Positions 11,100-48,566 are shown, counted from the first letter of the stretch. The stretch: DNA of 64,000 nt from an uncultured virus (IMG/VR IMGVR_UViG_3300008110_000044) (IMGVR_UViG_3300008110_000044); one strand, 5' to 3'. The notes: generated from the letters alone by a model not told the origin. Numbers and translations are program-made.

Positions 11100-11109
11100 C
11101 CTATGAAAA
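11082..11109 (+). repeat. 28-bp direct repeat, copy 2
   Basis: Identical to 10827-10854; contains the upstream stop and the next ATG. Confidence 0.95.
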
Positions 11110-14274: not shown

Positions 14275-14705
14275 AAACAGCACTCTATTTAGATGATCAA
14301 CGTACACCAACTATAAATATCCCAGGTTATGAACCTTGGGTAGTAGTTAGAAGTTATGAACAGTTTGTGAATTGGATTTCCGAGTTTGGCATTCCTGATC
14401 TGATCAGTTTTGATCATGATCTAGCAGATGAGCACATAGAAGACTACTTTAAGCAAAAGCTAAACCAGGGGTTTCAGCAACCAGAGTATGAATCCTATAA
14501 GGAAAAAACAGGACTTCATTGTGCTATGTGGCTAGTAGAGTTTTCGCAGACTAATGCAAAAAAGATAAATGCTGTATCAGTACACAGTCATAATCCGGTT
14601 GGAGCTAAGAATATTCAGGACTGTATTAATAGTTGGAAGAAGTTCTGTAACGAACCTGAGGATTGCTATATAGGAAAGCATCCTTTTAAAGTAGAAAACG
14701 AATAA
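14271..14705 (+). CDS. Receiver-like domain protein (cyclic-phosphate-processing REC family)
   Basis: LYLDDQR, ISFDHDL, TG..CA.WL and VHSHNPVG motifs. Confidence 0.75.
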   Translation: MKTALYLDDQRTPTINIPGYEPWVVVRSYEQFVNWISEFGIPDLISFDHDLADEHIEDYFKQKLNQGFQQPEYESYKEKTGLHCAMWLVEFSQTNAKKINAVSVHSHNPVGAKNIQDCINSWKKFCNEPEDCYIGKHPFKVENE

Positions 14706-14893: not shown

Positions 14894-14906
14894 CCCTCCT
14901 CTTTTT
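14878..14906. terminator. Terminator at the convergence of the two genome arms
   Basis: AAGAGGAGGG-AATTAA-CCCTCCTCTT perfect 10-bp stem with a T tract on + and an A-rich flank on the other side. Confidence 0.85.
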
Positions 14907-17900
14907 ATCTTACGTCACCCATTCTACCAGAGTAGTATATGATACGGTTGACGTTATTTACGTAAGGCAGAGCCTTTGTTATTTTTAACATAGTTCTTTC
15001 TCCATCAAACACAAGATCTCCATCTTCATCTTCTACCCCGGCCAGGTAATTAAGTGATGCCTCTACTGCTGTATAAGCTTGCGTCACTGTAGACATGCCA
15101 GGTACTACATTTGTAGTTAGACTCTCAAATGAGAATGGGTTAATATAATATGTAAGATCACGATTAAGAAGACTAAGCTGATTGATAAGAAGCTTCTTCC
15201 ATTTTTCATCATCGTCATCAAGAGCACTTGAAAGAAGTAGATACGTCATATAGAGTGTAAGAATAACTGACATCTCCATCATCAGCTTTCGTAAGTTTGC
15301 TGCTTCCTCTTCAGACAAAGTAGATGTCTCACTCTTTATAGCAGCATCATAAAAGTCTTGAAATATACCACCAACACGTACACCTTCATCACCAAAGAGT
15401 CTATTGGCAAATGTCCTATAGTATCCTTCTGTGTGTCTTTCTAGAATAGGATCATACTTTCTTTTCTCAAAACGAGCAGCTACAGTTTCAGGTAACCAAG
15501 TTTTGAATACAAATAAAGCTCGTCCAATATAACTGTCTTTACCAGCAAGAGACTGACCGCCACCTGAGAAACCGTGTAGTTTCTTTGCAACCTGTCCAAT
15601 CTTAGCACTTGTCTTATCATAGAAGTCTTCAAAGCTTAGCCCATTATTCTTTTCATCTAACCACTCTCCGTACTTCTCAGAGTCAAACTCTAAATTCTTA
15701 TTCATTACATCAAACAAGTTGAAAGTACCTTTTGATGTTTCAACTTTGGTTCCTAATAACATCGCTACAGATGTCTGAGATTTAAACAGATAGTCTGTAG
15801 ATCTCATAAGAGTCATAGGGTTAGGAATATACTTCTTAATCTTTTCCCAGTTGCTGGCCTTATTAATACCACCAAGAATAGCATCTTTAAATACGTCATC
15901 TTGGTTATCTACTACTTTAGAGTCTAGATTAATTTTAAGAATCTTTTCTGCTGATTCTGACTGCAGAGTTCCCCAACTAATATATTTAGCACTAGATGCA
16001 CGAATAATGTTAGTGGCTTTACCATAATCTTGTAAAGTAAAGTCTTGTGCTCCATATGCATGAATAATGTTGTTGATACCACCAATAGCCAAGTTGCGTA
16101 ATGCTGAGAATGGGTTAAACGCCAAACCTTTCTGACGAGTAAGTCTGTTTAAAGCATCAATTGTACTACTCATAGATAAATTACGACCACCTAATTTATA
16201 GTACTCACTCTTACTTGAATATAATTCTTTCTCAAGCTTAGCTCTGTCATCTTCTTTAAGCTCATCTGATTCAAGAGCTTTAGTAAGCTTTTCAATCTTG
16301 TCTTGTAATTCTTTAGCTTTCTTATATTGTTCAGACTTAGCACCGCCAAGTGTAAGAACTTCCCAAATATTATAGAACCTTCTCTTTTTACCAATACCTT
16401 CAGCTTCTGGAGGAATTTGATAGAATGATCTAAGCACTGCACTACCAACCATAGTCTGTAGATTCTTAGGTGCTTTACCACTTTCTACCTTCTCACCAAA
16501 CTTATCTTCTATAATAGTAGCATCTGCCATCTGTATAAGATCGTTGATAGAGTCAACCTGATCTTGTATCTGAATCTTATGCTTATACACAAGAGCCATA
16601 TCAGAAAACAACTTCATCATTAGAACAAGGTCCTTAGATCTCTCCTCTGTTGGCACCTCTTCATTAATAAATCTTGGTTTGAATTCCTGTCTTTCAGCCT
16701 CTGTAATAGGATCTTTCTTTGCTGACTTATCATAATCTACAATAGTAAGCTGTTTAAAGAACCAGTCACCCATATTCTTAGTGCTCTCTTTAAGAGCAGT
16801 AAATCCATACTCTTTAGCCATTCTCTCTACAATAACAGGTAGGAAGTTTGACTGTAGCTCATCTATCTCCTCTTCAGGTAAATAGTTCAATTGCTCTTGA
16901 ATAAAGTCTCTAAAGAATGTATAGAATCCATAAAGAGCTTTGTCAGACGCAATCTTACCAAAGTTCTCATCGTAATATCCTGGATCTTTACCCTCAACAG
17001 TTTTGCGAGGAAACTTAACAGAGTATCTACCACCTTTAAAGGCTTTAAACTCTGCAGTATTTAGTGTGTTTCTATTAGCGTTTTCTATAAAAGCAATAGG
17101 GTCATTAAGCTGTCTCCACTCTTTTACTCTTTCTTCAACAAATGCATCTTGATCTTCGCCTTCTTCTAGAATAATATCTCCAGAGAAAATATCAAGATAC
17201 AGTCTTGTTTTATAAATTTCTGAATCTTCTTCAAACTTCTTGGCTCTTTTTGTAGCCTGAGTAATCATATCAGCAATCTCATCTTCTGTAAAGCCTTGAG
17301 TCTTTAAATCATTGATTACATTTACTCTATCATCATCAGTATGATTCTTAGCATTAATAAACGGAGCTGAGTTAAATAAGATAGTATTAGAAGCAATCCA
17401 GCTATTATAACTTCTGTATGCAAGCTTTACAGCTTCTTTATCATCTCCAGCTTTTTCAAGATTAATTCTTAACTGTTTAGACTGAAATCTAATAGCATCA
17501 TAATAAGCCTGGCTAAATCTTCCTCTTAAACCAAGAGTACTCATGCCAAGTTTGTTTGTCTGCTCTTTAATAAATATATCAAAACCTCTAGCTTTTATCT
17601 CAGCGTTATCTTTGATCTTATCAAAAGCTGTTTCAATATCTTCGTAGTTTCTATTGTGCTCCTTAGAGATTTTTAGATTAGCTTCATTAATAATCTTTGC
17701 TAGATAACCAACAGTCTGATTATCAACCGTGGTAATATCTCTGGCCATACTATGGATATAACTTACATCCTTAAATGCATCAAGATCTTTTGTAGTAATC
17801 TTTCTGTCTTCAGGCATAGAGTTGTTATAAGCTTCTACAATAAGCTTTCTGGCTATATTGCTAAGCTTAATCTCAGATAGATTAACCTCTGACATAATCT

Positions 17901-18687
17901 TTTCAACCCTTTCTCTTAGCTCAGGCTCTACTACATCCTCAAATGTATTGATACCTAGTATCTTATTTATATTCTTCCAAGCTTTAATTATATCATCTGC
18001 AAAACGTACCTCAGTAAAGTTAACCACGGGACCAGAAAGAATACCACGAACCATATTCATGTCACTAAGACCTTGAGCTATTACATACTCAATTTGGTTA
18101 TTCTTAGTAAGTGTTTCTATCTGCTGATTAAGCTTCTTTATTACATTATTGTAATAACGCTCACGCTCAATCTTCTGATCCTTTGTATACTCTTTATTTA
18201 ACTTAGACTTTTCACGAGCTTGTACTGCAAGGTTTATACGATCTCTTAACTCCCTAATAGTAAGCTCAACCTGTTTCATCAGTCTTTTAGTAGACTTAGT
18301 TCTAGCAGATCTGAATCTTGTTTGTACAGGAGGTACTTGTGAAGTAAACTCATAGATAGACTTCTTATCCCCACGAGAGTTCTCAATCATTTCATCTTTG
18401 TCAAGCACAGGCTCTTGAGTCCACTCACCATAAAACTGCTTGAACTTCTTATCATAAACAGTAAGGTAAATACCCAAAGCTAGTTCCTCAGGATCAGTTG
18501 TATTGTTTATATACTTTCCAACATAGTTTTCTTCTAAAGAATTAACTACTGAAGATGCATATAAACTTGGTAAACCTTCCTGTATGTTCTGGAGTATCTG
18601 ATAGTAAAGCTTTGACGGGGTCTTCCCATCAGGTAGATTTACATCAGTTATAACACCAGATTTATTTCTTTTTATGTAACAAGCCAT
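14905..18687 (-). CDS. Giant virion cargo/ejection protein (third of the vRNAP gene trio), 1260 aa
   Basis: Directly downstream of the vRNAP as in crAss-like phages; helical and charged, with a C-terminal hydrophobic segment; single Cys at position 3. Confidence 0.75.
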   Translation of the reverse strand: MACYIKRNKSGVITDVNLPDGKTPSKLYYQILQNIQEGLPSLYASSVVNSLEENYVGKYINNTTDPEELALGIYLTVYDKKFKQFYGEWTQEPVLDKDEMIENSRGDKKSIYEFTSQVPPVQTRFRSARTKSTKRLMKQVELTIRELRDRINLAVQAREKSKLNKEYTKDQKIERERYYNNVIKKLNQQIETLTKNNQIEYVIAQGLSDMNMVRGILSGPVVNFTEVRFADDIIKAWKNINKILGINTFEDVVEPELRERVEKIMSEVNLSEIKLSNIARKLIVEAYNNSMPEDRKITTKDLDAFKDVSYIHSMARDITTVDNQTVGYLAKIINEANLKISKEHNRNYEDIETAFDKIKDNAEIKARGFDIFIKEQTNKLGMSTLGLRGRFSQAYYDAIRFQSKQLRINLEKAGDDKEAVKLAYRSYNSWIASNTILFNSAPFINAKNHTDDDRVNVINDLKTQGFTEDEIADMITQATKRAKKFEEDSEIYKTRLYLDIFSGDIILEEGEDQDAFVEERVKEWRQLNDPIAFIENANRNTLNTAEFKAFKGGRYSVKFPRKTVEGKDPGYYDENFGKIASDKALYGFYTFFRDFIQEQLNYLPEEEIDELQSNFLPVIVERMAKEYGFTALKESTKNMGDWFFKQLTIVDYDKSAKKDPITEAERQEFKPRFINEEVPTEERSKDLVLMMKLFSDMALVYKHKIQIQDQVDSINDLIQMADATIIEDKFGEKVESGKAPKNLQTMVGSAVLRSFYQIPPEAEGIGKKRRFYNIWEVLTLGGAKSEQYKKAKELQDKIEKLTKALESDELKEDDRAKLEKELYSSKSEYYKLGGRNLSMSSTIDALNRLTRQKGLAFNPFSALRNLAIGGINNIIHAYGAQDFTLQDYGKATNIIRASSAKYISWGTLQSESAEKILKINLDSKVVDNQDDVFKDAILGGINKASNWEKIKKYIPNPMTLMRSTDYLFKSQTSVAMLLGTKVETSKGTFNLFDVMNKNLEFDSEKYGEWLDEKNNGLSFEDFYDKTSAKIGQVAKKLHGFSGGGQSLAGKDSYIGRALFVFKTWLPETVAARFEKRKYDPILERHTEGYYRTFANRLFGDEGVRVGGIFQDFYDAAIKSETSTLSEEEAANLRKLMMEMSVILTLYMTYLLLSSALDDDDEKWKKLLINQLSLLNRDLTYYINPFSFESLTTNVVPGMSTVTQAYTAVEASLNYLAGVEDEDGDLVFDGERTMLKITKALPYVNNVNRIIYYSGRMGDVR

Positions 18688-18689
18688 AG

Positions 18690-21600
18690 TTATTTACATT
18701 GTGTATCTAGAGAATAATTTTCAATTGATCTTGTTGGAGCACTGAATAATGTACCTTGTTCTGGTGACCCACCTTCCATATTAGAAGCAGTAATAAGATT
18801 AAATGCATCATTTAAACCTTGCTCAAGAGCTGAGTCACCCATGATTTTAATACCTATACTTTCAGCTAAGGTACGGAAAAGTTTCATTAGTAATCTCTTA
18901 AATGATTCAAGAGCTGTTAACTGTCCTCTCTCCTCTACAATTGTTTGGTTCATCAGTCTTTGGAAACCAGCATCTGTAAATAACATACTTACAAATTCAT
19001 CAACGCTTGTAAGACCATAGTACTCAGATTTATCTGCAGGAGTTAGGAAGCCTTCACCGTCTGTAAGTTTTTCACGAACAGCTTTAAGCCTATCAGCATG
19101 AGCTGGATCAGACTCAAACTTTTCTACTACTTTGTTAAATAGTACTTTAAGAGAAGCACCATACATACGTTGTCTATCATTAAGACTCTTAGATCCTGTC
19201 TTCATCTTTGCAAGTACATCAGCTGTATAAGCATGAAGTACTTCGTGCATGATGACATTCTCAAGATTCTCTGCTCTTGTTTTATCAGGATGATCAGTAA
19301 TAGCAACATTAGGATTAATGATAATTACTTTTTCAGCCATGTCGTATTGACCAGGGTCCGGGATAGCAGTGTTTACAACAACAGTAACCTCAGGATATCC
19401 TACCTTACTAAAGATACTATTAAGAGTTTTATAGAACTCATTGTTTGTATTCTTAGATAGTTTAGTCAACACACTCTTTAGAGTCATTGGCTTATCAGCT
19501 TTAGGAATGTACTTAGAAACTATATCTGAGTCATTCTCTATAACATCATTACTGTTATCAACTACAACTACTGCATTATTAGGATCTTCTACAGTCTCAG
19601 CAAAGCCTAGACCGAAAACAGAGCCTGCATTCTGAACCTCAGGATCTTCTGTTTGATCTTCAAATGATCCAAACAGATCTATAGCTGGAACATCAATGTC
19701 AGCATTGTTAAAGTTTATATTCTCAGCAGATTCAGTTGTGTTATCCATATCCTCATCTGAAGGAAGTATTTCAGACTGAGCAGGGTTTACATATTTAATA
19801 TAACCCATTTCACTCATAGCTTCTGTGAATCCTTTACCAGTTAGATATTTCTTTAATAGCTGGTCAACACCGCTCATATTAGTAGCAACAAAACTAGCAC
19901 CTGCTGCAATAGCTCTATCTATAAAAGGAGTGTATTCTTTATTAAATACTTCATCTAATATTTTATAAGCTTCAGATGTTTGTAAAGCATCAAGATTCTG
20001 TTGCTCATCTGTTAAAGGAACAATATCAGTAAGATTATTACCACTTACCATTACTATATCAGCTGCAGAATAAATACCCGTATTAGACTTGTCTTTATAA
20101 GCTGCAAGGGTATTCTTTATAACAGCACTCTTGTTATTAATATTAGCTCCAATAAACTGAGTAGCTGTCTCAGCCATGGCAATATGACGTCTGTATAGAT
20201 CAATATTACCAAGCTTCATACCACGATAAGGGTTTGCCGGATTCTTAGAAAGTCTTTCCATCTTCTCTGAGTAAAGAAGATTATTAAAGAACGCAGAACT
20301 AAATGAAGTTTTAGTACTATCATACTCATTGATATCTTCGTTACCGAGAGTATTAATACGTTTATACTCAAAGCTTTCTATACCTGAGTCTTCATTCTCA
20401 AGACCTTGCTTTTCAAACAAGAACCAACGATCATATCTACGGTCATAAAAGCTTAAGTAATCAGGAAACTTCTTTCCTGTTCCTTCGTTTGAGCCAACCT
20501 CTACCATTAACTTATCTAAGTCTTCTTCAGCAACCTTTGATTTATCTAAAAATATAGATACATCATCACTTAACTTATTCATAAACACGCTCTTAAAGAT
20601 CTTATACGGAACTCTACGAGCATGATTAGGATTGTTTTGTATAAACTGTTTAACAAAACGCTCCCTATTGTTAAACAAACTAGGGAAGTTCTGCATAGAT
20701 TTCATGTATTTATCATTCAACATGAAAAGTTCTATAGGTATAAATTTCACATAAGATCCAGCACCTTGACTGTAACCTGTTACAAATGAGTATTTTACAA
20801 GATCTCTAGCAATGTTTATTAGTTCTTCATTACCGCTTAGTATAAGCTCTAGGAAACCCTTGTTATTAGCTAGTTCGTCTATATCTTGGCTAAACGGTGT
20901 ACGGTACTGTACAAGATAGGGGTCTGAAAACTTACCCTTCTTAGGTACAACAGGTCTTAAACGATTCATGAAGTAGTTAGTTTCTAAGAACTTATACTTC
21001 TCCTTAGCATCAATTATTCTTTGAGCAAGTGGTTTTTCTCCTTCATCGCCAAACAATAATCTCTTTCTCTCAGAACCAATATCATCTATAAAACCAATCT
21101 CAGGGTTTGTAAACACATAAGAGTAAATGCTACCCATAATCTCTTCTGATAGAGATATGTACTTAGTTTTACCATAGTTCTTAATTGAACCACTGGCACT
21201 CTTTTCTCTTACAATCTTAGACCGGATATCATTAAATATAGAACTGTAGTGTAATGGTGCAAGTTCAGATAGAACTGCAGTACCAAAATCTACAGCAACA
21301 CTCATGGCATGACCTGCTTGACCTTTAGGTGTAATGATCTCTCCATCTTCAGTTATATCACCTAGTATCTGATCAAGATTTAAGAACAATGAATCTTTTT
21401 TAGCTAGCACACTAACACTTCTTCTTTTATTTGCAGCAGCAAACAGAGAGTTACCAATACCAGATGATATTACGTTACTAGCGTTTATAATATTACTCAT
21501 CTCTTGACCAGCTTCTTCAAGCTTTTTATAGAGATTTAATATAGATAGCTGACCAATAACAAAATCATCAAGTTTAGTTTGGTCTTCTGGACTAATCTTA

Positions 21601-24600
21601 CGGCCAGCAAGCTTCTCTTTTATAAGGCTGCTACCAAACTCTTTATTGTCAACAAGTAACTGTAATAACTTTTGAGGATTAAATAAAACCTCAGGTGTTT
21701 TACCTTCAGTATATTCTTCTTTTGTTTTATCAGATAAAAGATTTGAGTACTTAAAAGATACTTCACCAAACAGATTCTTCTTATTTACGTATGTATTATC
21801 ATTCAAAGAGTCTCTACGAGATTCAAGAATAGATATAAAATCTTTGACAATCTGTTGTGAGAACAATCTAGTGGCGTATCTCATATCCACTATTTCGTTT
21901 TTATCTGAGCTTAAAGAAATCAAAGCTCTTAATGGAGTCATAGCTTCTACAGAAAAATCAAACTTATAAAGATTCTTGTTCTTAGTATTATCCACTGACT
22001 CAGTAAGCATGATAGACGTGTTGTCTGTCTTATTTCGCTCACCAAACGGAGTATCTGATTTACCTTCAGATGTAAGTTTGTAAAGATCCAACGGTGTTCC
22101 GTCATCCTTTAAAAGCTTAATTGGAGTAATAACCTTTTCTCCAGTAATACTAATCTTACCAAGGAAGATATCTTTATCTTGGTGTTCAGCAAGAAATGAG
22201 ATAAGCTGTGCAAAGATACCTGTACCTGTTTTACCACTTCTATTATCAATAAAACTCTTAATTTGAGTTTCGTAGTCCATAGGAATATAGTTATCCGGAA
22301 AATCTAAGAGACCCTTTTCTTCAAACAGATCACTTTCAGAAGGTATGTCAGCAAAGTCAATAGAACGTACAATCTTTGAATAAGTCTTTGGGTGTAAAAG
22401 AACTGAGCTGTGGATGTCTTTATACATCTGTAAAAGTTCATTATCTCCCATCTTAGTCAAAGACTCATATGTATTATCGTACTTAGATATATCGTAAGTA
22501 AAGCTTTCAAGACCAGATACTTTTGATTGCACTTCTTGTAACTCAGTTCTTAGCTTTTCAATATCAGCATTTAGCTTTTCACGTAAGTCAAACTTCTTCT
22601 GATTAGCTTCTTTCAGCTTCTCTTCAGTTGTCTCAGTCATTGCTGCAGCATAAACTTCTTCTAGTATCTTATTGATACCGTCAATACGTTTTTGTTTTTT
22701 ATCCTTCTCAGCCTGTGATAAGTTAACATACTTAAGCTTTTCTACGTATTTATTCTTAGCTTCTTTAAGCTGATTAATAGTATTACGTACACTCTTAGGA
22801 TAGACCATATCATAAAGAGCATCTCTCTGAGCTTCATAGTCTTTCTTAATACTTCCTATCTGATCATTAATCTCATTTATTCTTGCCTCATCTTCAGCAT
22901 TATACTTGTACTTAAGAATACTAGTATAAGCATATAGCTTATCCACGTCAAAGTCAGAACCCATCTGTGAAGTAATACCATCCGGTACAACAACTGTATT
23001 TTCCATAAAAGCAGGTAAGAAACCAGCTACTTCTATAGGAAGCATTGACGAGTGACTTTGGTTAGGAATACGAGCACCAATAAGTTGTAAAATTTTAGGA
23101 TCAAGCTTAGCAGGATCTATAATCAAACGTCCAGACTCGTCTTTTGTAGCTAGTGATTTAATATCAATAAGCTTACCGTTCTCATCTCTTAAGTACTGAG
23201 AGATAAACACTTGTGCACTTTTTATCTCTGACTTATCTTTACGTAAATACTGCAGACCTTTTTTAGGATCATATGCTGAAGTATATATAACCTCATTCTT
23301 AAACTTAAGATCCTTTTCAGAAATCTTAATAGTCTTAGATCCAACACCAGATACCTGTACTAAAGATGTACCAGGAACTTTAAGTTTTACTAGCTTAGTA
23401 AATATACTAGTCACAAGTCCTTCAAATCTCTTACCCTTTGCCATAAGGTAAATAGGAATAATAAGATTACCTTCCTTGTTTACTTTAATAGCTTTTATAT
23501 CGTTTATATCAAAGTTACGTTCTATAGCTTCTTCTCTTAGAAGATTGGCAAGGGCCCTTTGATCTTTAAATATTACCCTACCGTTTTGGATCTTGATGTT
23601 CATCCTATCAGCTAGCTCTTCTTGGTTCTTATAGAACAAAGCAATACGAACATCTTCTTTCAGCTTTTTAAGCTCACGACCAGTATAATTTTTACCAGCA
23701 AAGCTAAAGTCAGAAACATCTAAAAGACCTTCAAACAACTGACGGTCCATTTGGGATACTACGTTAATCTCAGACTTTTGAGTAGGAATCTCCTGCTGAG
23801 TACGCAGACCTTCTCTTGTAAGAGTTTGTCTAACTGCATTAAGCTGTACTTCAGAAGGCTGAATAAACTCACCATTCTCATTAAATAACTGTAGTGGCTT
23901 AGCCGGCATACCGGTCTTCTTTGCAGACTCAAAGTTTGCAGAACGGATATTATTAGTTTCCATTAATACCCTAAGCTTATCTAGCTCACTGCTAGATACT
24001 GCTTCTGGTACAAGAGGATATGTAGATGACTTTACATAGTCTACTTTACTAAATCCATCTTTACTAGTATTAGAACTGTGAACAGGCTTAGCTGGTTGCA
24101 TAACCACATCTAGCTCTTCATTATTCAGTTCATAGTACTTACCCTTACTCTTTTCAATCTTGTCTGTTATCTTCTGCCATATGTCAAGAGATATTCTACC
24201 CTCTGACATTAAACGATCAATATGCTCTTGAACTGTTACAAATTCCTGGGCGTCTGTAGTGTTAGTACCTTTAAATGTAGCAACATCTTTCTTTACGTCA
24301 GCTATTGTAATAGTATCATAGAAAGTCCTATCTACCGGATTACCTTTGGTATCAATCCACTCGTACACTCCCTGTGACCCTGGAGCAATAAACATAGCAG
24401 CTCTCTTACCAAATTCATCCATTGTAAGAGAAACTACCTTATTCATATCTGCAGTAGTCATTTGTTCGTACGCCTTATTCTTTACAGCTTTATCTATTTT
24501 GTCTGTATAGAACAACGCAGGGTCCGCACCAAGAACCTGAAGAGTATTTATCTGTGCTCTTAAGTAGTTATACTTAAAATCAGCAATAGCCATAATACCC

Positions 24601-27008
24601 TTATGACGGCTTGATAAGGTAGAGAATCTATCCATGTATGAACTATCAAAGTATGGATAATCAAACTCTATAATCTTTTGTTCTTTACCAGAAGTATTAT
24701 CTATAACCTCTTTTTTATTAATTATCCCTGAGTCAACCATGCTTACAAAAGACTTAAGAACAGATTCTTTAAAACTGTTAGTAAGTACCTTAGACAAGTA
24801 TTCTCTGTCTTCCTCATTAGGAGCTACGCCTTGGAACATCTTATTACGGATATCTACAAGAGTAGGATCTTCTATAGAGTTAAGGGCTGGAAATAAATAA
24901 AAGAAACGGTTTGCTTTATTAAAGTTATGAATACCAAGTTCTTCCTTACCATCGTATCCGGCATAGTCTAAGATTCTATTTATCTCAGATTCTGCCAAAC
25001 GATAAAGCTTATCAGAAAAACTCTTCTTAAAATTAAAAGAGTCTCTTAACCTAGTACTATTGTTTTTATTAATAGATACATCTAAAGAAGTAGATAAACT
25101 ATCTTTAGTAACCTCAATAACAGGCGTCACTGTCTTATCAGACAATGTAAACATATTATAAAACCCAGCCTGCTTATTATTATTTTGATGTTTAACTAAA
25201 GCGTCAAACAACATCTCTTTAGGAGACATGAATCTACGAACCTTAGCATCTTTATCTTCTTTGTCACGCTTTAAAGAATCAGCATATCTAAGTCTATAAG
25301 TAAATAGACCCACCTCCTTACCCTTGTTTTTAATTAATTCTTCTACAACTTCAGAAGATCTACTAAAAGATCTATCCTGAAGCTCACGTAAAAACGATCC
25401 GTCTTCTCTGACAAGTTTCTTTTTTACAGTCTCAAGATAACTAGGGTTAATATATGAGTAGATAGTTTTGTTTTCACCGTTTCTAAATGATCCGGTTTGG
25501 TATTTATCACCATGAAACTCAAGATAGATCTCTGCAAAACGTGTAAAGATTCTATCATTAAGCATAGCGTTATTAATATCATCATACTTAGATGATGTTT
25601 TCCCTTCAGGATTCTTAGCATATATCTTTAAAACTCTATCAAATGCACCACCTGGACGTAGTAATCCATTAAAGCTGCCACTACCCATTGTTCTAAAGAA
25701 GCCACTATTAGCACGCTCTTTTAGATATTCAACCATCTTAGGAGTAAACTCAATACCTACAGCTTTAAAGAACTCTTGTACAAAGAATACTTTCTCAGCA
25801 GCTTCTTTACTTTTATTAGCCGTAGTCAAAGATTCTTGTAGCTTAGTTACACGGTCTTTATTTATTACAAGGTCCCCTATTTCATCTTTAGATACAATAG
25901 CAGAACGCTTCTGATTTTCTAACCAGTCTTGTTTAATCTGATTAAGAACACTGTTACGGTTTGAACTAATAATCTTTACCGTAACACCAGCATCACCTGC
26001 ACTGTTCCAAAGTACTAGAACATGATCAGTAAATGATTTATTAATTACTGTTAATAGCTCATTAAGAAGCTGAACATTCTTTTGATCTCTTAGTTCAGCT
26101 ATTCTTTTGGCAACATTAATAAGATACGGTTTATTCTTACTCTTTTCAATAAGATCTGCCTGAAGACTGTTATAAGTTAAATTAGCTGACGCACTACCTA
26201 TCTGTAAAAGATCTTCAAATACTTGGTCATAAGAAACAAAGTCACTCTTACCGAATACGTTCTTCTCTACATCAGGTATGGTAGACAAGAATAGCTTAAC
26301 CCTTGTGCTAGCAGTATCTTTAACGTTTACTCTAAAGGCACGACCATCTTCAAAGCTCTCGTCCATTTGACGATCTGACTCTTCTACTTCTTCATCGCTA
26401 TCATCTGAATCTTCCTCAGCAAGAGCCATATAGTATTCATATGTCTGACCATAGTCCTCTATCTTGTCAGCACCAATACGCAAACCTACTCGTGCAAGTT
26501 TGGTACGGGCAAGATCAACAAACTTATCAAAGTTCTCTTTATCTATAATATTCTTGAACTGCTCTACTGCAGCTTGTATTTGTTCATAAGAAAGTCTCTC
26601 TAATTCAGGAAACTTCTGTACAACATCTTGGTTCTGTTTAATCTGATCATAAGCTTCCTGAGAAGTTACCTTCTCCATAAGAAAGCTTAGACGCTTATAA
26701 TCATTGGTAAGAGAAGCTCGTATACCAGAAAACAACTGATTAGGTTTTATTCTAATCTCTTGTCCAGGTTTTAAAATACCAAGCTTTTTAATAATCTCAG
26801 AGTAGATTATATTAGTATATGCTGTTTCCTGTAATGGTGTAAACAGGTTAATATTAACAAAACGATCCTTAGTAAGATCTGATATCTTACTAACTAATTC
26901 TTCATTAGACAGGTTCTCGTTGCCTGGTACAGCAAGTATACTACTAAAAACCTGTTGAGTTTCAGATTCACTATACTGTTTTCCGTTAATGATATATTTA
27001 CACGCCAT
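18690..27008 (-). CDS. Virion-packaged two-barrel DNA-dependent RNA polymerase (crAss-like), 2772 aa, with C-terminal zincin-like domain
   Basis: RIPNQ...GSDFDVDK catalytic motif (DFDVD at 22941-22955); TDAQ...KP...KSS.YPL...SAKKTG second-barrel motifs; HEVLH near the C-terminus. Confidence 0.9.
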   Translation of the reverse strand: MACKYIINGKQYSESETQQVFSSILAVPGNENLSNEELVSKISDLTKDRFVNINLFTPLQETAYTNIIYSEIIKKLGILKPGQEIRIKPNQLFSGIRASLTNDYKRLSFLMEKVTSQEAYDQIKQNQDVVQKFPELERLSYEQIQAAVEQFKNIIDKENFDKFVDLARTKLARVGLRIGADKIEDYGQTYEYYMALAEEDSDDSDEEVEESDRQMDESFEDGRAFRVNVKDTASTRVKLFLSTIPDVEKNVFGKSDFVSYDQVFEDLLQIGSASANLTYNSLQADLIEKSKNKPYLINVAKRIAELRDQKNVQLLNELLTVINKSFTDHVLVLWNSAGDAGVTVKIISSNRNSVLNQIKQDWLENQKRSAIVSKDEIGDLVINKDRVTKLQESLTTANKSKEAAEKVFFVQEFFKAVGIEFTPKMVEYLKERANSGFFRTMGSGSFNGLLRPGGAFDRVLKIYAKNPEGKTSSKYDDINNAMLNDRIFTRFAEIYLEFHGDKYQTGSFRNGENKTIYSYINPSYLETVKKKLVREDGSFLRELQDRSFSRSSEVVEELIKNKGKEVGLFTYRLRYADSLKRDKEDKDAKVRRFMSPKEMLFDALVKHQNNNKQAGFYNMFTLSDKTVTPVIEVTKDSLSTSLDVSINKNNSTRLRDSFNFKKSFSDKLYRLAESEINRILDYAGYDGKEELGIHNFNKANRFFYLFPALNSIEDPTLVDIRNKMFQGVAPNEEDREYLSKVLTNSFKESVLKSFVSMVDSGIINKKEVIDNTSGKEQKIIEFDYPYFDSSYMDRFSTLSSRHKGIMAIADFKYNYLRAQINTLQVLGADPALFYTDKIDKAVKNKAYEQMTTADMNKVVSLTMDEFGKRAAMFIAPGSQGVYEWIDTKGNPVDRTFYDTITIADVKKDVATFKGTNTTDAQEFVTVQEHIDRLMSEGRISLDIWQKITDKIEKSKGKYYELNNEELDVVMQPAKPVHSSNTSKDGFSKVDYVKSSTYPLVPEAVSSSELDKLRVLMETNNIRSANFESAKKTGMPAKPLQLFNENGEFIQPSEVQLNAVRQTLTREGLRTQQEIPTQKSEINVVSQMDRQLFEGLLDVSDFSFAGKNYTGRELKKLKEDVRIALFYKNQEELADRMNIKIQNGRVIFKDQRALANLLREEAIERNFDINDIKAIKVNKEGNLIIPIYLMAKGKRFEGLVTSIFTKLVKLKVPGTSLVQVSGVGSKTIKISEKDLKFKNEVIYTSAYDPKKGLQYLRKDKSEIKSAQVFISQYLRDENGKLIDIKSLATKDESGRLIIDPAKLDPKILQLIGARIPNQSHSSMLPIEVAGFLPAFMENTVVVPDGITSQMGSDFDVDKLYAYTSILKYKYNAEDEARINEINDQIGSIKKDYEAQRDALYDMVYPKSVRNTINQLKEAKNKYVEKLKYVNLSQAEKDKKQKRIDGINKILEEVYAAAMTETTEEKLKEANQKKFDLREKLNADIEKLRTELQEVQSKVSGLESFTYDISKYDNTYESLTKMGDNELLQMYKDIHSSVLLHPKTYSKIVRSIDFADIPSESDLFEEKGLLDFPDNYIPMDYETQIKSFIDNRSGKTGTGIFAQLISFLAEHQDKDIFLGKISITGEKVITPIKLLKDDGTPLDLYKLTSEGKSDTPFGERNKTDNTSIMLTESVDNTKNKNLYKFDFSVEAMTPLRALISLSSDKNEIVDMRYATRLFSQQIVKDFISILESRRDSLNDNTYVNKKNLFGEVSFKYSNLLSDKTKEEYTEGKTPEVLFNPQKLLQLLVDNKEFGSSLIKEKLAGRKISPEDQTKLDDFVIGQLSILNLYKKLEEAGQEMSNIINASNVISSGIGNSLFAAANKRRSVSVLAKKDSLFLNLDQILGDITEDGEIITPKGQAGHAMSVAVDFGTAVLSELAPLHYSSIFNDIRSKIVREKSASGSIKNYGKTKYISLSEEIMGSIYSYVFTNPEIGFIDDIGSERKRLLFGDEGEKPLAQRIIDAKEKYKFLETNYFMNRLRPVVPKKGKFSDPYLVQYRTPFSQDIDELANNKGFLELILSGNEELINIARDLVKYSFVTGYSQGAGSYVKFIPIELFMLNDKYMKSMQNFPSLFNNRERFVKQFIQNNPNHARRVPYKIFKSVFMNKLSDDVSIFLDKSKVAEEDLDKLMVEVGSNEGTGKKFPDYLSFYDRRYDRWFLFEKQGLENEDSGIESFEYKRINTLGNEDINEYDSTKTSFSSAFFNNLLYSEKMERLSKNPANPYRGMKLGNIDLYRRHIAMAETATQFIGANINNKSAVIKNTLAAYKDKSNTGIYSAADIVMVSGNNLTDIVPLTDEQQNLDALQTSEAYKILDEVFNKEYTPFIDRAIAAGASFVATNMSGVDQLLKKYLTGKGFTEAMSEMGYIKYVNPAQSEILPSDEDMDNTTESAENINFNNADIDVPAIDLFGSFEDQTEDPEVQNAGSVFGLGFAETVEDPNNAVVVVDNSNDVIENDSDIVSKYIPKADKPMTLKSVLTKLSKNTNNEFYKTLNSIFSKVGYPEVTVVVNTAIPDPGQYDMAEKVIIINPNVAITDHPDKTRAENLENVIMHEVLHAYTADVLAKMKTGSKSLNDRQRMYGASLKVLFNKVVEKFESDPAHADRLKAVREKLTDGEGFLTPADKSEYYGLTSVDEFVSMLFTDAGFQRLMNQTIVEERGQLTALESFKRLLMKLFRTLAESIGIKIMGDSALEQGLNDAFNLITASNMEGGSPEQGTLFSAPTRSIENYSLDTQCK

Positions 27009-27011
27009 AAG

Positions 27012-30000
27012 TTAGCACTCTTTACTTATTTGTTTATCTTGTCTTGCATCTTCTACTCTCGTAGCTATTGACTTCTTATTACCTTCTAGATCATCTAGCA
27101 AACCTGGATCAAAATCACCAAAGTCAGTTATACCTTCTCCAAACTCTGCATTTAATAACATATCTGCTAAACTACCAGTATCTGTAGAAGCTTCTTTTTT
27201 ACCACCTCCAAGAGCATCGCGTAAAGTCTTTTTATAAGACTCAATCTGAGAACTACTTAGTTTACTTCCACGATTACCGGCTACGTTAAGAGTCTGTATA
27301 TTATTATCGTTTAAGAATTTAGCTAACTCTTCTGTAGTGGGATTAGCAATATAAGGTTTGTTATTTTGCTTTAAAAGATTAATTGTAAGCTTAGATCCAG
27401 CAGAATTAAGATCTCCAAAAACTACAGTACCGTCTGATGCTTTTACATTTTTTTCTGTTCTTGGGTTATAACTAGAAGATGAATCTTCTGTTAGTCCAAG
27501 TTCTTTTAAACTAATGTCTGCACCTTTCTCAGTTTTATATCCTTTTGGAGCAATACCACCAGTCTTAATACCTAACTCTTTAGCAACTTCTAAACCTAAT
27601 CTATCAGCACCAGTTTGACCACCAGAAATAATTTTAGTAACTGGAGTTGACACAGATTTCTTTTCTAAAGGAGCAGGCTGAGCTTCAACTTTAGGAGCAG
27701 CTTTCTTTTTTTCTTCTCCTGTAAACTCAAAGTTTATTACAGGGTTAGCAAAGTGAACAAGTTCACTATCAGGATCAGAAGGATTAACAGGTACTCCAGG
27801 AGCAACGTTTGTCTCTAGGATATTAAACATATGTTCGTTGTAGGTCATAGGCTCAGATTTAATCAGCTTACCGCCAACAACACTTAAGAACTGTATCTTT
27901 TTATCAGAGTTAATCCCAGTATTCTTAGCATCGGTAAACTTAGTATTGTAATATACTAATGCTGCTAAGTTATAATACTTATCTTGATTATCCTGAGTAA
28001 GTTGTGAAGGAGATTTAAGCATAAGCTTATCTTGATCTTCATTCTGAGTTTCTACTGCCCAAGTAATAAGAGTACCATCAGGTAAGATATTAATCTGAGA
28101 AGTATTAGGCTTAAGAGGATCATACCTCATTTCAGAAGATGTAAACGTAATGTAATCGTTTATATAATCCTGAAGAAGTTTAAAGTCTGGAGCTTCATCT
28201 GTTTCTAGTTTAGAACCATAAGCCTCGTATACTGCATTTGCTATTTTGTAAGCTTCTGATTTAGTGTCATACTTCTTACTAGCTTTATTCTCAGTATTTA
28301 ATTTATGAAAAGCTTTCCAAGATTCTAGAATAAAGTCTTGATGTCCTGCATTCAAAGTAGGTACGGATACCCAGCTTACAAGTTTTTTACCTGTAGGCGT
28401 GGTCATGATAACCATAGGCCATCCGTTAAGACTAGTTTTATCTGCAAATGTCTGGCTAACTTTAGAAGGAAGAATAAGATCATCCTCATTTTCAGTCAAG
28501 GGTTGGTTTAATCCTACATAAGGAACGCCATTCTTTATAATAGCAATCTGAGTGTTTGGATGAAATACCTCTGACAGCTTTCTCATTTTAGAATCTGTCA
28601 TAAGAGTACCATCTGATTTTGCAGACACTACAGCGGTTTGTTCTATTACGCCTTGATTATTATACTTATCCATAAGTTCTTTACGAATCTTACGGATCAT
28701 ATCTATATTGATAGCACGGTTATCTATAGTCTCTCCATCTACAAATATTTCATCCACAATGTTCTTACTATCACCGTTCTCTAAAGACTGTGTTACCCAT
28801 CTTTCTGTAGGAAGATAACCAAGCTTTATTTCTTTACCGTCTACAGTTGCATAAATAACAACTGGAAAATCAGATTCAGCCTCAGGTTTAATCTTACCGT
28901 CTTTAGCAAAGTAATCATCTCTTGTCTTCTTTGACTTAACATCTGAGTTAAGATAGTCGTACTCATCAAATGACTTCATCTCACTATCTACACGAATGCT
29001 TAGTACAGTATTAAGACCTATTTTACTTGTAGCCATTACAAGAGGATAGTTTTTATTTACACCTTCTTTTGTAAGAAGGGTGTCTTTACCAGGATCTGTC
29101 TTAGTTCTTGTAACAAAGAATGTATTATTAATCTTTCTATAACCATTAACAGCTTTCTTATTTCTGGTAAGAGAACTATTCTTCTTTTCTAAATCAGCAT
29201 CAATACCATTTTTACTATTAGCCTGATCTAGAGTTGTACCACGAGTTTTGCTTACATCTACAATCTGCCCATTAACAAACTTCTTACGTGGATTCTTTTT
29301 AGTATCACGTCTATTTACTTCTGAAGCAGGTAACTCACCTTTATTAGGATTCTTTACAAGCTTAGCATATCCGTTATTTAAAACTTCTTGTATCTTCTCT
29401 TTAGGTACATCTACAGTCTGATCTTGAGTAACTACTGTTACATTACCATCAGATGTAAACCCAATAACTTGTATATCTGGATTAACACCATCTTGAATAG
29501 TATCTCCAAGATTTAGAGTAAATCCGCCAACAGTCATTGATACCGCTGTATCAACAGGAGTAGCTCCTTCTGTTTCAGTATCTTCAGCTGGTTCTTCTTC
29601 TACTTTTTCTACCTTCTCAGGTTTCTTACCGTAAACAAACTTAATATCTTCAGGATCAGTCTCTGACTCAACAGGGTAAACATCTTTATAGCTTACACTA
29701 TACTTAGCAAGTACTTTAGAAGCATCATTATTAAATCTTAAAAAGCTAGTTGGATCAGCTGCTTTTTGTCCAGCCTCTTCCTGCTCAGCTTTGTACTTCT
29801 TGTATAAAAGCTCTAAATCATCTTGTAAACCCTCTATATTAAGAGGTTCTTGTTGTACTACCTCACCTTCAGCACCTTCTATTTCTGCAGTCTCATCTTC
29901 TGTTGCACTTTGTAAAAGCTTAGCTAGATCACCATCCTCATCCATAACACGAGCTTCTGCCACATGTTCTTCATTAAACTTTTCACCAGCTTTTGTAATA

Positions 30001-32654
30001 GCATCTACTATACGATCATGTAAAGATATAAACTGAGTAGGGTTAGCTATAACATTAAAGGCATCTATATATCCATAATGATCTTTGTATAACTGCATGT
30101 AATCCATGAAGTTATCATATACTTTTGTAAAGTCAGTTTGTTTAACAGCTACTTCTTTTTGATTCTTCTCAGCATTCTTACTATTTACATAGTCACGAAA
30201 AGCTTTATTAAATTCTCTCTTTTTAAAGAGTGAACGAATATCTTGATCTTCTGCATTTAAAAGAACATAACCTTCTATCCATTTATCTAAAGCAGCTATC
30301 TGCTGTTCTTTAGCTTTAATCAATCTTTTTGTTGCTGCATCAGGTTTTTCCATAGACTCTAGCTGAGCTAGTTCTTGTCTAAGTAGCATAGCTTCACTTC
30401 CTGCAGCTTGCATATCTCCAAGATTACGGAATGCTATTTCTACAGAAGATCCTATATTAGGAATAGCTGCCATTTGGCTTTGTAGCTCTACAGCTCTTTC
30501 AATAGCTTTCTTAGATTTAAAATCAAGAGTAGCCATAATTTCTATAGCTTCATCAAGGGCTTTCTTAGAATAGTTAGCTATCTTTCTTTCAGGTGTACCT
30601 TCTTTATATAGTTCAGGTATAACTAAATCAGAATATCTATCTTTTAGGCTCTTCCAGTTTTGATGAAAGTCTTTAGCTGAATCAGACACTTTAGTAAAGA
30701 AATCTTTTACAGAAGATACATTATCCTCTGTCATCTCCATACCAAAAGCTTCTTTGAATTCTTTTGCATCCATCTTATCAGCAAAAGTTTTCATTGTCTC
30801 CATCAGAGGCTCAAACATGTTTGTCTTAATAGCAGCAGAAACTGTTCTTGCAAAACCAGAATCTTTGGCATTAGTAAACACATATTGATCTCTATTAGCA
30901 ATAGCTTCATCCATGGTATTAGCTACCTTGTTCTGAATCTTTACGTTAGCAATATGCTCATTCATGAATCTATTAGGATTCTGGTAGAATGCATTAATTA
31001 GATCTACAGATTCTTGAATGTCTGTTTTTCTTTGTTCACGTTGTTCAGCAGTAGTACCAGCATAAAGTTTAGCCTGACCAATAGCAAAATTTATAGGGGA
31101 TATTAATCTACCAGTAAGAGCACCCATTAAGAATGTCTTAAGACCTTGATTATTTTGAGCAAGGTCACTACCTGCAGACTTTATATATTTTGAAAAGTCT
31201 CCACCATTTACTCCATGGTAAAGATCATAATAGTATTTCTGAAGACTTAAGTTACTACCTTCTTGTAAAATTTCTTGTAAACCTTCTGTAGCTTCCCACT
31301 TAAAGATATTAGATCCAAGTGACTTAGCTGCCTCCCAGGCTGCTGTACGTCTACCAAAATCTTTAGCAATATCTCCATACAAACCTACACCACCAAGACG
31401 TCCTTTTACATACGTCTTAGTAAGATTCTTTCCAGCAACAGTTAATACATCATCAGAGTATCCAGCTGCTTCTCCTAAAACTCTTCTACCAAAATTAAAC
31501 TTAGTAAATAGATTATCAAACTGTAGTCTATTAGAAAGCATTAAGATACCAGCGTTTACACCAAAGTTGTCTGTTGCTGCATCATAAGATAGTTCTCTCA
31601 TTCTTTCTATCTTATCACCACTTGGCATCTCTCCAGTTCTACGTAGCTCTTCATCATAAAGATTACTGTATAGCTCACCATAAGTACCTGCAGCTTCCAT
31701 TCTTGCTTCAGTAAAAGCCATGTTGGCTTCACCAAGCATACGTCTTACTCCACCAACACCAATGGAGGCAAGTTGTAAAGCACCTGCTCCAGCTCTATTA
31801 TAACGAGCAATATCATCAACTGTACCTACTAAAGGCACAAACTTCTTAGCACCATTTACTAAACCATTAACAAAATTATCTGAACGGGTTAAGACATGTC
31901 CTGCCTTTGCCATATCAGCAACTACGTCTGCTTTAGTAACAGTTCTTCCTAACCATCTAGGAGCACTTAATCCAAGTTTAGCTAATGAAAATTCTGTACT
32001 TAATCCAAGAGTAAGCAGTTCTTCTGTAACAAATTGACCTATAGTTCCAAGAGCAAAACCACTTTGCTGAACCATATCACCGAAGAACTTTCTATTCATA
32101 AGTTCACCAGAGTCAGACTCTGGCGTTGCAAAAATAGCATACTTATTCATGATAGATTCATGAAGCTTACTCTGCTCTAGTAGTTCTTCAGGTGTACCAA
32201 TAAGTTTAGATGAATCCCATGTAGCAATAGCTTCGGCTAGTTTACCCCAACCTTTCCATCCTTCTACATAAGTATCAGATGCAAGTTTCCAAGCTCCACC
32301 TAAAGCGTTACCCCAAACATCACCCCAAGACTGTACAGCTCCGTACTTGTATTCATTACCGTAACCTTCTAAAGGATTAAAACCTAATTGACCAAAGTAC
32401 TGAGAGTTAGTATATCTATCTAGTTTAGTTCCTACTGGATCAAACGTAGTAGGTGCTGCCAATGCTGTAGCACTAGCAGGCTTATCAAAGTTTAAAGATT
32501 TTACAGGATCATAAGGTTGTGAACTTCCAAAGCTTGCAGCTGGACCATTCACAATATCTAGAATACCAGACCCCCCAGGAAGAGTAGGAAGTGGTTCAGG
32601 TATTAGACTGCTGGGTTGCAGCATGTCAGGTATTACTGAATTTAAAAATTCCAT
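27012..32654 (-). CDS. Giant virion cargo/ejection protein with C-terminal cpYpsA/SLOG-like domain, 1880 aa
   Basis: Gly/Ala-rich hydrophobic N-terminal part (EGLQEILQE); C-terminal IISGGQTGADR...RTEKNVKASDGT...LNVAGNR; only Cys is the last residue. Confidence 0.8.
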   Translation of the reverse strand: MEFLNSVIPDMLQPSSLIPEPLPTLPGGSGILDIVNGPAASFGSSQPYDPVKSLNFDKPASATALAAPTTFDPVGTKLDRYTNSQYFGQLGFNPLEGYGNEYKYGAVQSWGDVWGNALGGAWKLASDTYVEGWKGWGKLAEAIATWDSSKLIGTPEELLEQSKLHESIMNKYAIFATPESDSGELMNRKFFGDMVQQSGFALGTIGQFVTEELLTLGLSTEFSLAKLGLSAPRWLGRTVTKADVVADMAKAGHVLTRSDNFVNGLVNGAKKFVPLVGTVDDIARYNRAGAGALQLASIGVGGVRRMLGEANMAFTEARMEAAGTYGELYSNLYDEELRRTGEMPSGDKIERMRELSYDAATDNFGVNAGILMLSNRLQFDNLFTKFNFGRRVLGEAAGYSDDVLTVAGKNLTKTYVKGRLGGVGLYGDIAKDFGRRTAAWEAAKSLGSNIFKWEATEGLQEILQEGSNLSLQKYYYDLYHGVNGGDFSKYIKSAGSDLAQNNQGLKTFLMGALTGRLISPINFAIGQAKLYAGTTAEQREQRKTDIQESVDLINAFYQNPNRFMNEHIANVKIQNKVANTMDEAIANRDQYVFTNAKDSGFARTVSAAIKTNMFEPLMETMKTFADKMDAKEFKEAFGMEMTEDNVSSVKDFFTKVSDSAKDFHQNWKSLKDRYSDLVIPELYKEGTPERKIANYSKKALDEAIEIMATLDFKSKKAIERAVELQSQMAAIPNIGSSVEIAFRNLGDMQAAGSEAMLLRQELAQLESMEKPDAATKRLIKAKEQQIAALDKWIEGYVLLNAEDQDIRSLFKKREFNKAFRDYVNSKNAEKNQKEVAVKQTDFTKVYDNFMDYMQLYKDHYGYIDAFNVIANPTQFISLHDRIVDAITKAGEKFNEEHVAEARVMDEDGDLAKLLQSATEDETAEIEGAEGEVVQQEPLNIEGLQDDLELLYKKYKAEQEEAGQKAADPTSFLRFNNDASKVLAKYSVSYKDVYPVESETDPEDIKFVYGKKPEKVEKVEEEPAEDTETEGATPVDTAVSMTVGGFTLNLGDTIQDGVNPDIQVIGFTSDGNVTVVTQDQTVDVPKEKIQEVLNNGYAKLVKNPNKGELPASEVNRRDTKKNPRKKFVNGQIVDVSKTRGTTLDQANSKNGIDADLEKKNSSLTRNKKAVNGYRKINNTFFVTRTKTDPGKDTLLTKEGVNKNYPLVMATSKIGLNTVLSIRVDSEMKSFDEYDYLNSDVKSKKTRDDYFAKDGKIKPEAESDFPVVIYATVDGKEIKLGYLPTERWVTQSLENGDSKNIVDEIFVDGETIDNRAINIDMIRKIRKELMDKYNNQGVIEQTAVVSAKSDGTLMTDSKMRKLSEVFHPNTQIAIIKNGVPYVGLNQPLTENEDDLILPSKVSQTFADKTSLNGWPMVIMTTPTGKKLVSWVSVPTLNAGHQDFILESWKAFHKLNTENKASKKYDTKSEAYKIANAVYEAYGSKLETDEAPDFKLLQDYINDYITFTSSEMRYDPLKPNTSQINILPDGTLITWAVETQNEDQDKLMLKSPSQLTQDNQDKYYNLAALVYYNTKFTDAKNTGINSDKKIQFLSVVGGKLIKSEPMTYNEHMFNILETNVAPGVPVNPSDPDSELVHFANPVINFEFTGEEKKKAAPKVEAQPAPLEKKSVSTPVTKIISGGQTGADRLGLEVAKELGIKTGGIAPKGYKTEKGADISLKELGLTEDSSSSYNPRTEKNVKASDGTVVFGDLNSAGSKLTINLLKQNNKPYIANPTTEELAKFLNDNNIQTLNVAGNRGSKLSSSQIESYKKTLRDALGGGKKEASTDTGSLADMLLNAEFGEGITDFGDFDPGLLDDLEGNKKSIATRVEDARQDKQISKEC

Positions 32655-48561: not shown

Positions 48562-48566
48562 AATGA

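Follow-up and report, generated by a model that had tools for sequence, protein, structure and literature searches.

crAss-like phages are among the most abundant human gut viruses, and the available text of two reports leaves open how their cargo of about 0.7 MDa, which includes the early RNA polymerase, is packed and ejected (PMC10172136; PMC13434306). The subject here is a stretch of 64,000 nucleotides (nt) from an uncultured virus (IMGVR_UViG_3300008110_000044), here called the window, which is part of a crAss-like phage genome with its late-gene block on the minus strand. Three consecutive open reading frames (ORFs) of this block encode giant proteins, named U (1880 amino acids (aa), 27012-32654), R (2772 aa, 18690-27008) and D (1260 aa, 14905-18687) in the order of their genes, with R being homologous to the virion RNA polymerase. 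The only cysteines (Cys) of the three proteins are found at the termini that face each other across the two gene junctions, and these Cys probably serve to join the proteins end to end. A simple, conserved sequence rule of this kind supplies a concrete and testable mechanism.

Cysteine layout of U, R and D

U has a single Cys, its last residue (1880/1880, ...QISKEC), and none at its N end. R has Cys at positions 3 and 2771 of 2772 only (MAC... and ...DTQCK), and D has one, at residue 3 (MAC...), with none at its C end. An earlier note on this DNA, which relied on reading the translations by eye, had put the total at four Cys in 5912 residues, all of them at facing tips; the computed count agrees exactly and reveals no extra internal Cys in any of the three proteins.

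At the first junction, the TGC codon for Cys1880 of U (27015-27017) directly precedes the TAA stop codon (27012-27014), and after a spacer of 3 nt the start codon of R (27006-27008) is followed by the TGT codon for Cys3 (27000-27002). At the second, the TGT codon for the penultimate residue of R, Cys2771 (18696-18698), lies just ahead of the R stop codon (18690-18692), and the spacer to the start codon of D (18685-18687) is 2 nt, with the TGT codon for Cys3 of D at 18679-18681. The junction sequences quoted in the earlier note, gag tgc taa ctt atg gcg tgt (27020-27000) and tgt aaa taa ct atg gct tgt (18698-18679), are correct.

The 34 ORFs of at least 150 aa in the window average 0.92% Cys (174/18,852 residues), so that about 54 Cys would be expected in 5912 residues, and U, R and D together are depleted more than ten-fold relative to the window average. 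As a rough estimate, the chance of all four Cys falling in the four facing 3-residue tips is about 1.6e-12.

Identity of the three proteins

R matches the structure of gp66 of Cellulophaga phage phi14:2 (PDB 6VR4) over residues 903-1402 with an E value of 3e-24, and phrog_16227 with an E value of 2.7e-46; a tblastn search matched 134 crAss-like phage records. The catalytic motif DFDVD is found at R residues 1352-1356 (22941-22955, minus strand), in a segment (G1350-D1356) that is invariant in the R alignment A2, and a motif of the DFDxD type is described for gp66 (bioRxiv 10.1101/2020.03.07.982082). The last domain of R carries a zincin-type motif, HEVLH (residues 2588-2592; 19233-19247, minus strand), of which H2588, E2589 and H2592 are invariant in A2, and some 35 residues of tail lead from this domain to Cys2771. 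A homologous zincin domain occurs in 40+ related loci, including gp65 of phi14:2, and its fold matches to minimal zinc metallopeptidases are weak (E 0.13, probability 0.87). D shows no family in Pfam, PHROGs or NCBIfam, the last of which was also blank for U, R and the two neighbouring proteins upstream of U, and no PDB relative of D was found by profile search. In the Protein Atlas, D falls in viral clusters only, with LPD38 and LPD39 as weak leads.

The locus has the features of the crAss-like polymerase module, i.e., homology to gp66 with a DFDxD motif, giant flanking companions that come after tail ring, muzzle-sized and cargo genes of the same strand, and a zincin-like HExxH domain. The available text of two reports places the corresponding block proteins of phi14:2 and crAss001 in virions and has the polymerase entering the host (bioRxiv 10.1101/2020.03.07.982082; PMC10172136), and judging from these reports U, R and D are most likely packed in the virion and injected. 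Comparison of gene layouts suggests that the three are separately translated pieces of what is, in many relatives, one or two giant polyproteins.

Conservation in cultured relatives and public gene calls

The earlier proposal depended on the terminal Cys being kept and paired in homologues. This was found to be the case in phi14:2, Flavobacterium phage FpV4, crAss001, DAC17, p-crAssphage, loci from IMG/VR and public gene calls. The modules of phi14:2 (gp67-gp66-gp65) and crAss001 (gp47/gp50/gp49) are homologous to that of the window, with DFDxD motif, zincin domain, giant flanking proteins and the same layout of tip Cys. In phi14:2, gp67 (1797 aa) ends in its only Cys, the two Cys of gp66 (2180 aa) are residues 3 and 2179, and gp65 (1421 aa) has one Cys, at 3. 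The first two proteins of FpV4 are fused (4287 aa) with a sole Cys at 4286, and the next protein begins MAC (Cys3). The U homologue of crAss001, gp47, is encoded on the opposite strand, and its single Cys is residue 2339/2341; the Cys of gp50 are at 5, 1334 (internal) and 2404 of 2412, and that of gp49 is at 5. DAC17 shares this layout. In p-crAssphage, gp45 carries Cys1956/1957 and two internal Cys, and gp44 carries Cys3 and seven internal Cys. An apparent exception, crAss002, has an annotated start 32 codons upstream of an internal M-S-C, and the same is seen in a relative.

Lone tip Cys were also observed in smaller cargo-like proteins, i.e., p-crAssphage gp47 (L004 3798-6371) at C-1, crAss002 gp30 (L005 4168-5841) at C-7, and FpV4 gp30 (L001 2180-3976) at N5.

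Public protein predictions provide gene calls that are independent of ours; each homologue set opens with the protein of the window itself or one nearly identical to it, and the R set consists of the best 120 of 434 hits. D homologues have an N-tip Cys at position 3-4 in 23/23 cases, a C-tip Cys in 0/23, and no other Cys in 29,232 residues. Among U homologues, a Cys no more than 15 residues from the C end is present in 77/85 and one in the first 8 residues in 0/85, with 9 internal Cys in the set. The R homologues carry an N-tip Cys in 113/120 and a C-tip Cys in 101/120, with 46 internal Cys in 418,263 residues. Their N-tip Cys is at position 3 (93 proteins), 4 (14) or 5 (6), and the distance of the C-tip Cys from the end is 0 (37), 1 (43) or 2 (21) residues. 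R homologues without one of the tip Cys comprise short fragments, N-tip-only forms of about 3,700-4,400 aa, and C-tip-only forms; the long N-tip-only forms are presumably R fused to D, and the C-tip-only forms U fused to R. The alignment columns of U C1880 (alignment A7) and of R C3 and C2771 (A2) are invariant.

Pairing of tip cysteines at gene junctions

A single-protein query of IMG/VR retrieved no close relatives, and the loci were retrieved by an alignment-based scan with the polymerase core (alignment A1), from which the best 80 of 516 confirmed matches were taken. In the window and 86 loci, ORFs of at least 400 aa were called from the first ATG and assembled into chains of same-strand neighbours. 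Three loci (L030, L079, L081) had no usable ORF at the match, and the remaining 84 loci form 56 clusters at 60% core identity. L030, which lacks long ORFs under translation table 11, was left out. A junction was scored as paired if the upstream protein has a Cys no more than 15 residues from its C end and the downstream protein has one no more than 8 residues from its N end.

The 142 junctions between adjacent ORFs fall into 80 with both Cys, 51 with neither, 7 with the C-tip Cys only and 4 with the N-tip Cys only (Fisher p 5.8e-26). At cluster level the 106 junctions divide into 53, 44, 5 and 4, respectively (Fisher p 2e-19). Junctions with neither Cys are mainly those from a small, Cys-free cargo protein to the first giant protein. 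Start-codon miscalls with an internal MSC or MAKKC account for 3/7 of the C-only junctions, and the other four involve smaller upstream proteins. Tip Cys are infrequent in control ORFs of at least 250 aa from the same loci, at 7/84 N ends (8%) and 14/84 C ends (17%). Chain proteins of at least 1000 aa contain 185 internal Cys in 414,926 residues (0.045%) versus 1.22% in background ORFs.

In three contigs, L079, L081 and L082, the in-frame stop codons are TAG only, at 17-58 per giant ORF, and the giant ORFs are restored when TAG is translated as Gln. These sequences show TAG being read as a sense codon in these crAss-like phages, and with TAG as Gln the Cys pair is present in all three.

Cysteine pairs follow the break point

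If the two Cys of a pair belong to a broken polypeptide and not to a particular gene arrangement, they might be expected to follow the break wherever it lies. Adjacency of the genes is not needed: in all 19 of the 19 loci where the U homologue is encoded on the opposite strand, its C-tip Cys and the N-tip Cys of R are both kept, and pairs are also kept over spacers of 400-1500 nt that hold other genes. Breaks with a pair occur at different places relative to the DFDxD motif, i.e., about 1300-1600 aa before it (J1; 17 junctions, 14 clusters), after it (J2; 58 junctions, 33 clusters), and about 270 aa before it (J3; 3 junctions, 3 clusters). The position of J2 relative to the zincin domain also varies: the break follows this domain, which is then part of R, in the window and in many relatives, whereas in phi14:2 and L043 it comes before, so that in phi14:2 the domain belongs to gp65. 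In p-crAssphage and crAss002 the zincin domain is at the end of the protein that precedes the polymerase. In simple cases the outer ends of the chain have no Cys.

The expectation that the Cys would be lost where the genes are fused held in most cases. There is no junction-zone Cys in 27/31 ORFs fused at J1, and no Cys beyond +700 in 8/13 ORFs fused at J2. The fully fused giants L028 (5005 aa), L037 and L038 have 0 Cys. Gain of a pair at a new break is seen in L022, which is split at J3 with a Cys pair and has new tails of about 90 and 59 residues at the split; L016, a member of the same cluster, has no break at J3. L068 has a break but no pair, and its relative L051 is continuous at that site; the L068 break looks like an assembly break or an insertion, not a true split. 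Placement of the junction on fused relatives by BLASTP was limited by the divergence of the junction-flanking regions, and only L043 could be placed, roughly.

A gene for a ferritin-like protein, 157-166 aa long (Pfam PF00210, E ~3e-12), separates the Cys-tipped polymerase halves in L020 (gene at 11080-11556), L022 (11116-11589) and L024 (11014-11514). In L043 (16235-21657), D has Cys6 and a second Cys one residue from its end, and the chain seems to extend past D: the following ORFs are one of 241 aa, one of 308 aa (Cys3, Cys306) and one starting MDNC.

The layout of the Cys, their conservation and co-occurrence, their independence from gene adjacency, their presence at different break points and their absence at fusions are real, highly non-random and general in crAss-like phages.

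Comparison with other ejection systems

The closest parallel is the pre-ejectosome of cyanopodophage A4 (Anabaena phage A-4L), in which a disulfide between gp27 Cys1715 and gp26 Cys5 was seen by electron cryo-microscopy (PNAS 2025, PMC12002296). The available text of that report has the C-terminal helix of gp27 docking into gp26, and describes the bond as stabilising the docked helix. Direct counts give one Cys in gp27 (residue 1715 of 1717 aa) and one in gp26 (residue 5 of 1114 aa; PDB 9K3A chain A), and the distant relatives Pf-WMP3 and Cyanophage PP (about 24% identity) retain both. As in the window, the A4 proteins are consecutive giant ejection proteins, encoded by adjacent genes in the same order, otherwise free of Cys, with Cys at the facing tips. 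The sequence marks of the A4 clasp are found in the window, where the C-tip Cys is within about 3 residues of the end, the N-tip Cys is at about 3-5, there are no others, and both are conserved together in relatives.

The two systems differ in that A4 has one link, not a chain of two or more, and no RNA polymerase. A bond in the particle has been seen for A4 only, and the A4 account (PMC12002296), in its available text, neither generalises the bond nor ties it to gene splitting or fusion. Homology between A4 gp26-gp29 and U, R and D was not detected by phmmer (no hit) or hhalign (probabilities below 1%). A Foldseek search with a model of D (predicted template-modelling score (pTM) 0.48) gave no match at E <= 0.001, and 9K3A was absent among the matches listed. 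Given this lack of similarity in sequence, profile or fold, the likeness between A4 and crAss-like phages is functional and possibly convergent.

A second parallel is the suppression of Cys in the ejection proteins of Schitoviridae (N4 gp50-gp52, DEV gp71-gp73), for which the available text of PMC11445570 gives passage through the periplasm as the rationale. A direct count bears out the statement of the earlier note that the injected virion RNA polymerase of N4 lacks Cys, with 0 Cys in gp50 (3500 aa), gp51 and gp52. The strong suppression in giant injected proteins, including a virion RNA polymerase, is thus shared with crAss-like phages, but Schitoviridae have no tip Cys, and the N4 polymerase is a single 3500-aa chain of a different, T7-like kind. 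T7 was considered as a further case of tip pairs and rejected, as gp15 and gp16 have 0 Cys and gp14 (L090 1229-1819) has a single Cys, at residue 2, leaving no pair. With N4 and T7 both lacking pairs, the device is not universal.

The earlier note knew of no description of such a mechanism. This stands for crAss-like phages, for which none was found, but not in general, given the disulfide precedent in A4 (PMC12002296). No description of terminal Cys, or of a link between crAss polymerase-block proteins, was found in full-text literature searches or in the available text of the crAss001 atlas (PMC10172136), the gp66 preprint (bioRxiv 10.1101/2020.03.07.982082), an N4 paper of 2026 (PMC13434306), the DEV paper (PMC11445570) and a Crassvirales review (PMC10136315). 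The terms cysteine, Cys and disulfide do not occur in the available text of the preprint, and that of the atlas has disulfides in the tail and portal vertex only. One solved cyanophage already provides an example of this kind of link; what is new, as far as could be found, is a multi-link chain around a virion RNA polymerase and its strict coupling to gene splitting and fusion.

The rule is also of use in annotation. Tip Cys mark true protein starts and ends, and for example suggest that crAss002 gp33 starts at its internal MSC; they distinguish real gene splits from assembly breaks (L068 versus L051), remain valid under TAG recoding, and assign cargo proteins to one chain.

Probable linkage of the three proteins

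The head-to-tail chain proposed in the earlier note agrees with every comparative test that the note named (conservation, pairing, loss at fusion and lack of internal Cys), and U, R and D are probably joined end to end by inter-chain disulfides, U-Cys1880 to R-Cys3 and R-Cys2771 to D-Cys3. The disulfide nature of the link, its timing and its purpose are what we infer from the pattern. The bonds would form once the proteins are packed in the particle, and the product would be a single, nearly linear thread, 5912 residues long and arranged U-R-D, as a counterpart of the relatives' polyprotein. With the linking Cys 0-2 residues short of one protein's C end and at positions 3-5 of the next protein, the branch stubs would be only a few residues long, and the thread could travel down the tail channel as one unfolded polypeptide would, with its order fixed and its stoichiometry 1:1:1. 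Without other Cys there would be no mispairing and no capture by periplasmic thiol oxidases, and thiol reductants of the host cytoplasm could then free the three proteins without a protease.

Several observations are consistent with this mechanism. The crAss001 atlas, in its available text, holds that cargo proteins must be at least partially unfolded for passage (PMC10172136), and the placement of the Cys at the tips fits an unfolded thread passing a narrow tail channel. The same text describes disulfides in the tail and portal vertex of crAss001 virions. The lack of other Cys agrees with a published proposal by which ejected proteins escape thiol oxidation in the periplasm (PMC11445570, available text). 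In an AlphaFold2 model of the C-terminal 400 residues of R, the predicted local distance difference test (pLDDT) score is 75-91 in the zincin domain and below 50 in the final 35 residues, which include Cys2771. The model of D residues 1-1199 (mean pLDDT 72, pTM 0.48) is mostly helical, and its Cys3 lies just before a small hairpin (strands 4-7 and 13-17), with a pLDDT of 79 for the first 10 residues. The low-scoring R tail and the confident D N terminus give modest support to a predicted arrangement in which a flexible R tail meets a folded D head.

A number of points weigh against a lasting disulfide chain. Gel or cross-link data on the bond were not found in the literature, and the one solved example, A4, is an analogy and not a case of inheritance, having no detectable homology to U, R and D. 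The host cytoplasm is reducing, and for gut crAss phages the habitat is anoxic. Four related records, phi14:2 and the Pfam scan of the window yielded no gene of the thioredoxin family, and an Erv1-type oxidase was not searched for in the related records. At the N-only junctions of L021, L043 and L064, R has no C-tip Cys, and an additional ORF of 584-697 aa without a Pfam family separates R from D. Among the U homologues, 8/85 lack the C-tip Cys. Internal Cys in some lineages (crAss001 gp50 Cys1334; seven in p-crAssphage gp44) mean that the total is not always even, and the lone tip Cys of p-crAssphage gp47, crAss002 gp30 and FpV4 gp30 have no matching tip Cys in the adjacent genes.

The alternative that survives best, though it is unlikely, is that the tips do pair but through a shared metal ion, or through a transient assembly or docking disulfide that is absent from the mature particle. 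The co-occurrence statistics show pairing and not chemistry, a metal bridge was allowed for in the earlier note, and the reducing cytoplasm and the lack of a thioredoxin-family gene in the records named above are in keeping with a link that does not last. The P22 tailspike, reportedly a case of transient assembly disulfides, would be a model for it. A metal site is difficult to reconcile with one Cys per tip and no conserved His or Cys neighbour, the profiles around the Cys being mostly K, N, I, A and S, and the sole solved analogue is, in the available text on A4, a disulfide in the mature virion.

Nor is it likely, and it ranks next, that the tip Cys bind other targets, either copies of the same protein, giving homodimers or polymers, or Cys-rich capsid, portal or tail proteins. 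Potential partners are at hand, with 2-4.5% Cys in tail and virion proteins of the window and many inter-protein disulfides in the crAss001 tail, and some small cargo proteins do have a lone tip Cys without an adjacent partner. Binding elsewhere predicts no coupling of C-tip and N-tip Cys, yet only 11/142 junctions are one-sided, at least 3 of them by start miscalls. It also sits poorly with outer chain ends that never bear Cys in simple cases and with pairs that arise jointly at new break points, and the A4 structure, as described in the available text, shows hetero-pairing.

It is very improbable that the termini are split-intein halves, or another ligation device, with a single polypeptide as the mature product. 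The tails of about 90 and 59 residues at the J3 split of L022, missing in the fused relative, recall split-intein halves in size, but neither these tails nor U, R and D have a Hint or intein match in Pfam, the Cys are at the extreme outer tips and not at extein-intein boundaries, and R and D of the window start directly with MAC. The available text of the gp66 preprint (bioRxiv 10.1101/2020.03.07.982082) moreover has gp65, gp66 and gp67 as separate virion proteins, and full-length gp66 (2,180 residues) as active in vitro and crystallised. Least tenable is that the Cys codons are a by-product of nucleotide signals at coupled (stop-restart) junctions, of chance or of composition: both window junctions are alike in DNA, with their 2-3 nt spacers, but the pairs on opposite strands and across long spacers exclude an origin at the DNA level or in translational coupling, TGT and TGC are both used, and the probabilities given above for the window and the survey leave hardly any room for chance.

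Returning to the disulfide chain, a wider reading can be put forward tentatively, in which tip-to-tip Cys clasps are reversible substitutes for peptide bonds in the injected cargo of podophages, with release triggered by reduction, and originated independently in crAss-like phages and cyanopodophages. With such clasps a polyprotein could be cut anywhere, foreign genes inserted (as with the ferritin-like gene of L020, L022 and L024) and Cys-tipped modules appended (as in L043, with at least 5 tipped members), and still be delivered as one ordered thread. The polymerase and the effector domains of its companions would be freed and activated once they reach the host cytoplasm, with reduction there as the timed trigger.

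Gene block and other features

On the minus strand, the order of genes is rings, a 1522-aa protein, an 878-aa protein, proteins of 1027 and 1019 aa, and then U, R and D. The tail ring proteins CrAss_Ring_1 and CrAss_Ring_2 are identified by Pfam at 46437-47974 (minus strand), and the 878-aa protein has peptidase-type Pfam domains. The 1019-aa (32671-35730) and 1027-aa (35788-38871) proteins, also on the minus strand, are cargo-like and have no family in Pfam, PHROG or NCBIfam. The earlier note had seen no Cys in either, and the computed count is indeed 0 for each; without a tip Cys, they are placed outside the chain.

U contains, near its C end, a cpYpsA SLOG domain at residues 1675-1801 (27252-27632, minus strand; Pfam PF12694, E 2.3e-27; PDB 3IMK, E 7.6e-15). 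In relatives it is placed differently, i.e., in R of L039 (residues 374-525) and at residues 4443-4577 of L033, and judging by these positions it appears to behave as a movable module. The polymerase homologues in the set of the best 120 carry varied Pfam domains, including AAA_30/UvrD-type helicase, DUF1768, AlkB-like PF13532, SprT PF10263, zeta-toxin-type kinase PF06414 and PF18760, and the giant chain seems to be a carrier for diverse injected domains.

The tail and virion genes at 46437-59275 (minus strand) are unusually rich in Cys, mostly with 2-4.5%; the 410-aa ORF at 54500-55732, which has 18 Cys, is an example. This fits the disulfide-stabilised tail reported for crAss001. The cargo block that adjoins them has 0-0.08% Cys. 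Among these genes, a 165-aa protein (55757-56254, minus strand) has its only Cys as the last residue (...ANVVDC), and a 255-aa protein (58508-59275, minus strand) ends in CGCIQC; the two may represent further tip-Cys contacts among virion proteins.

The plus strand encodes a protein with a cREC_REC cyclic-phosphate receiver-type domain beside the end of D (14271-14705, E 1e-21), a SegE-type GIY-YIG endonuclease (1636-2082, E 3e-28) and a spore-photoproduct-lyase-like protein (9980-10831, E 6e-11).

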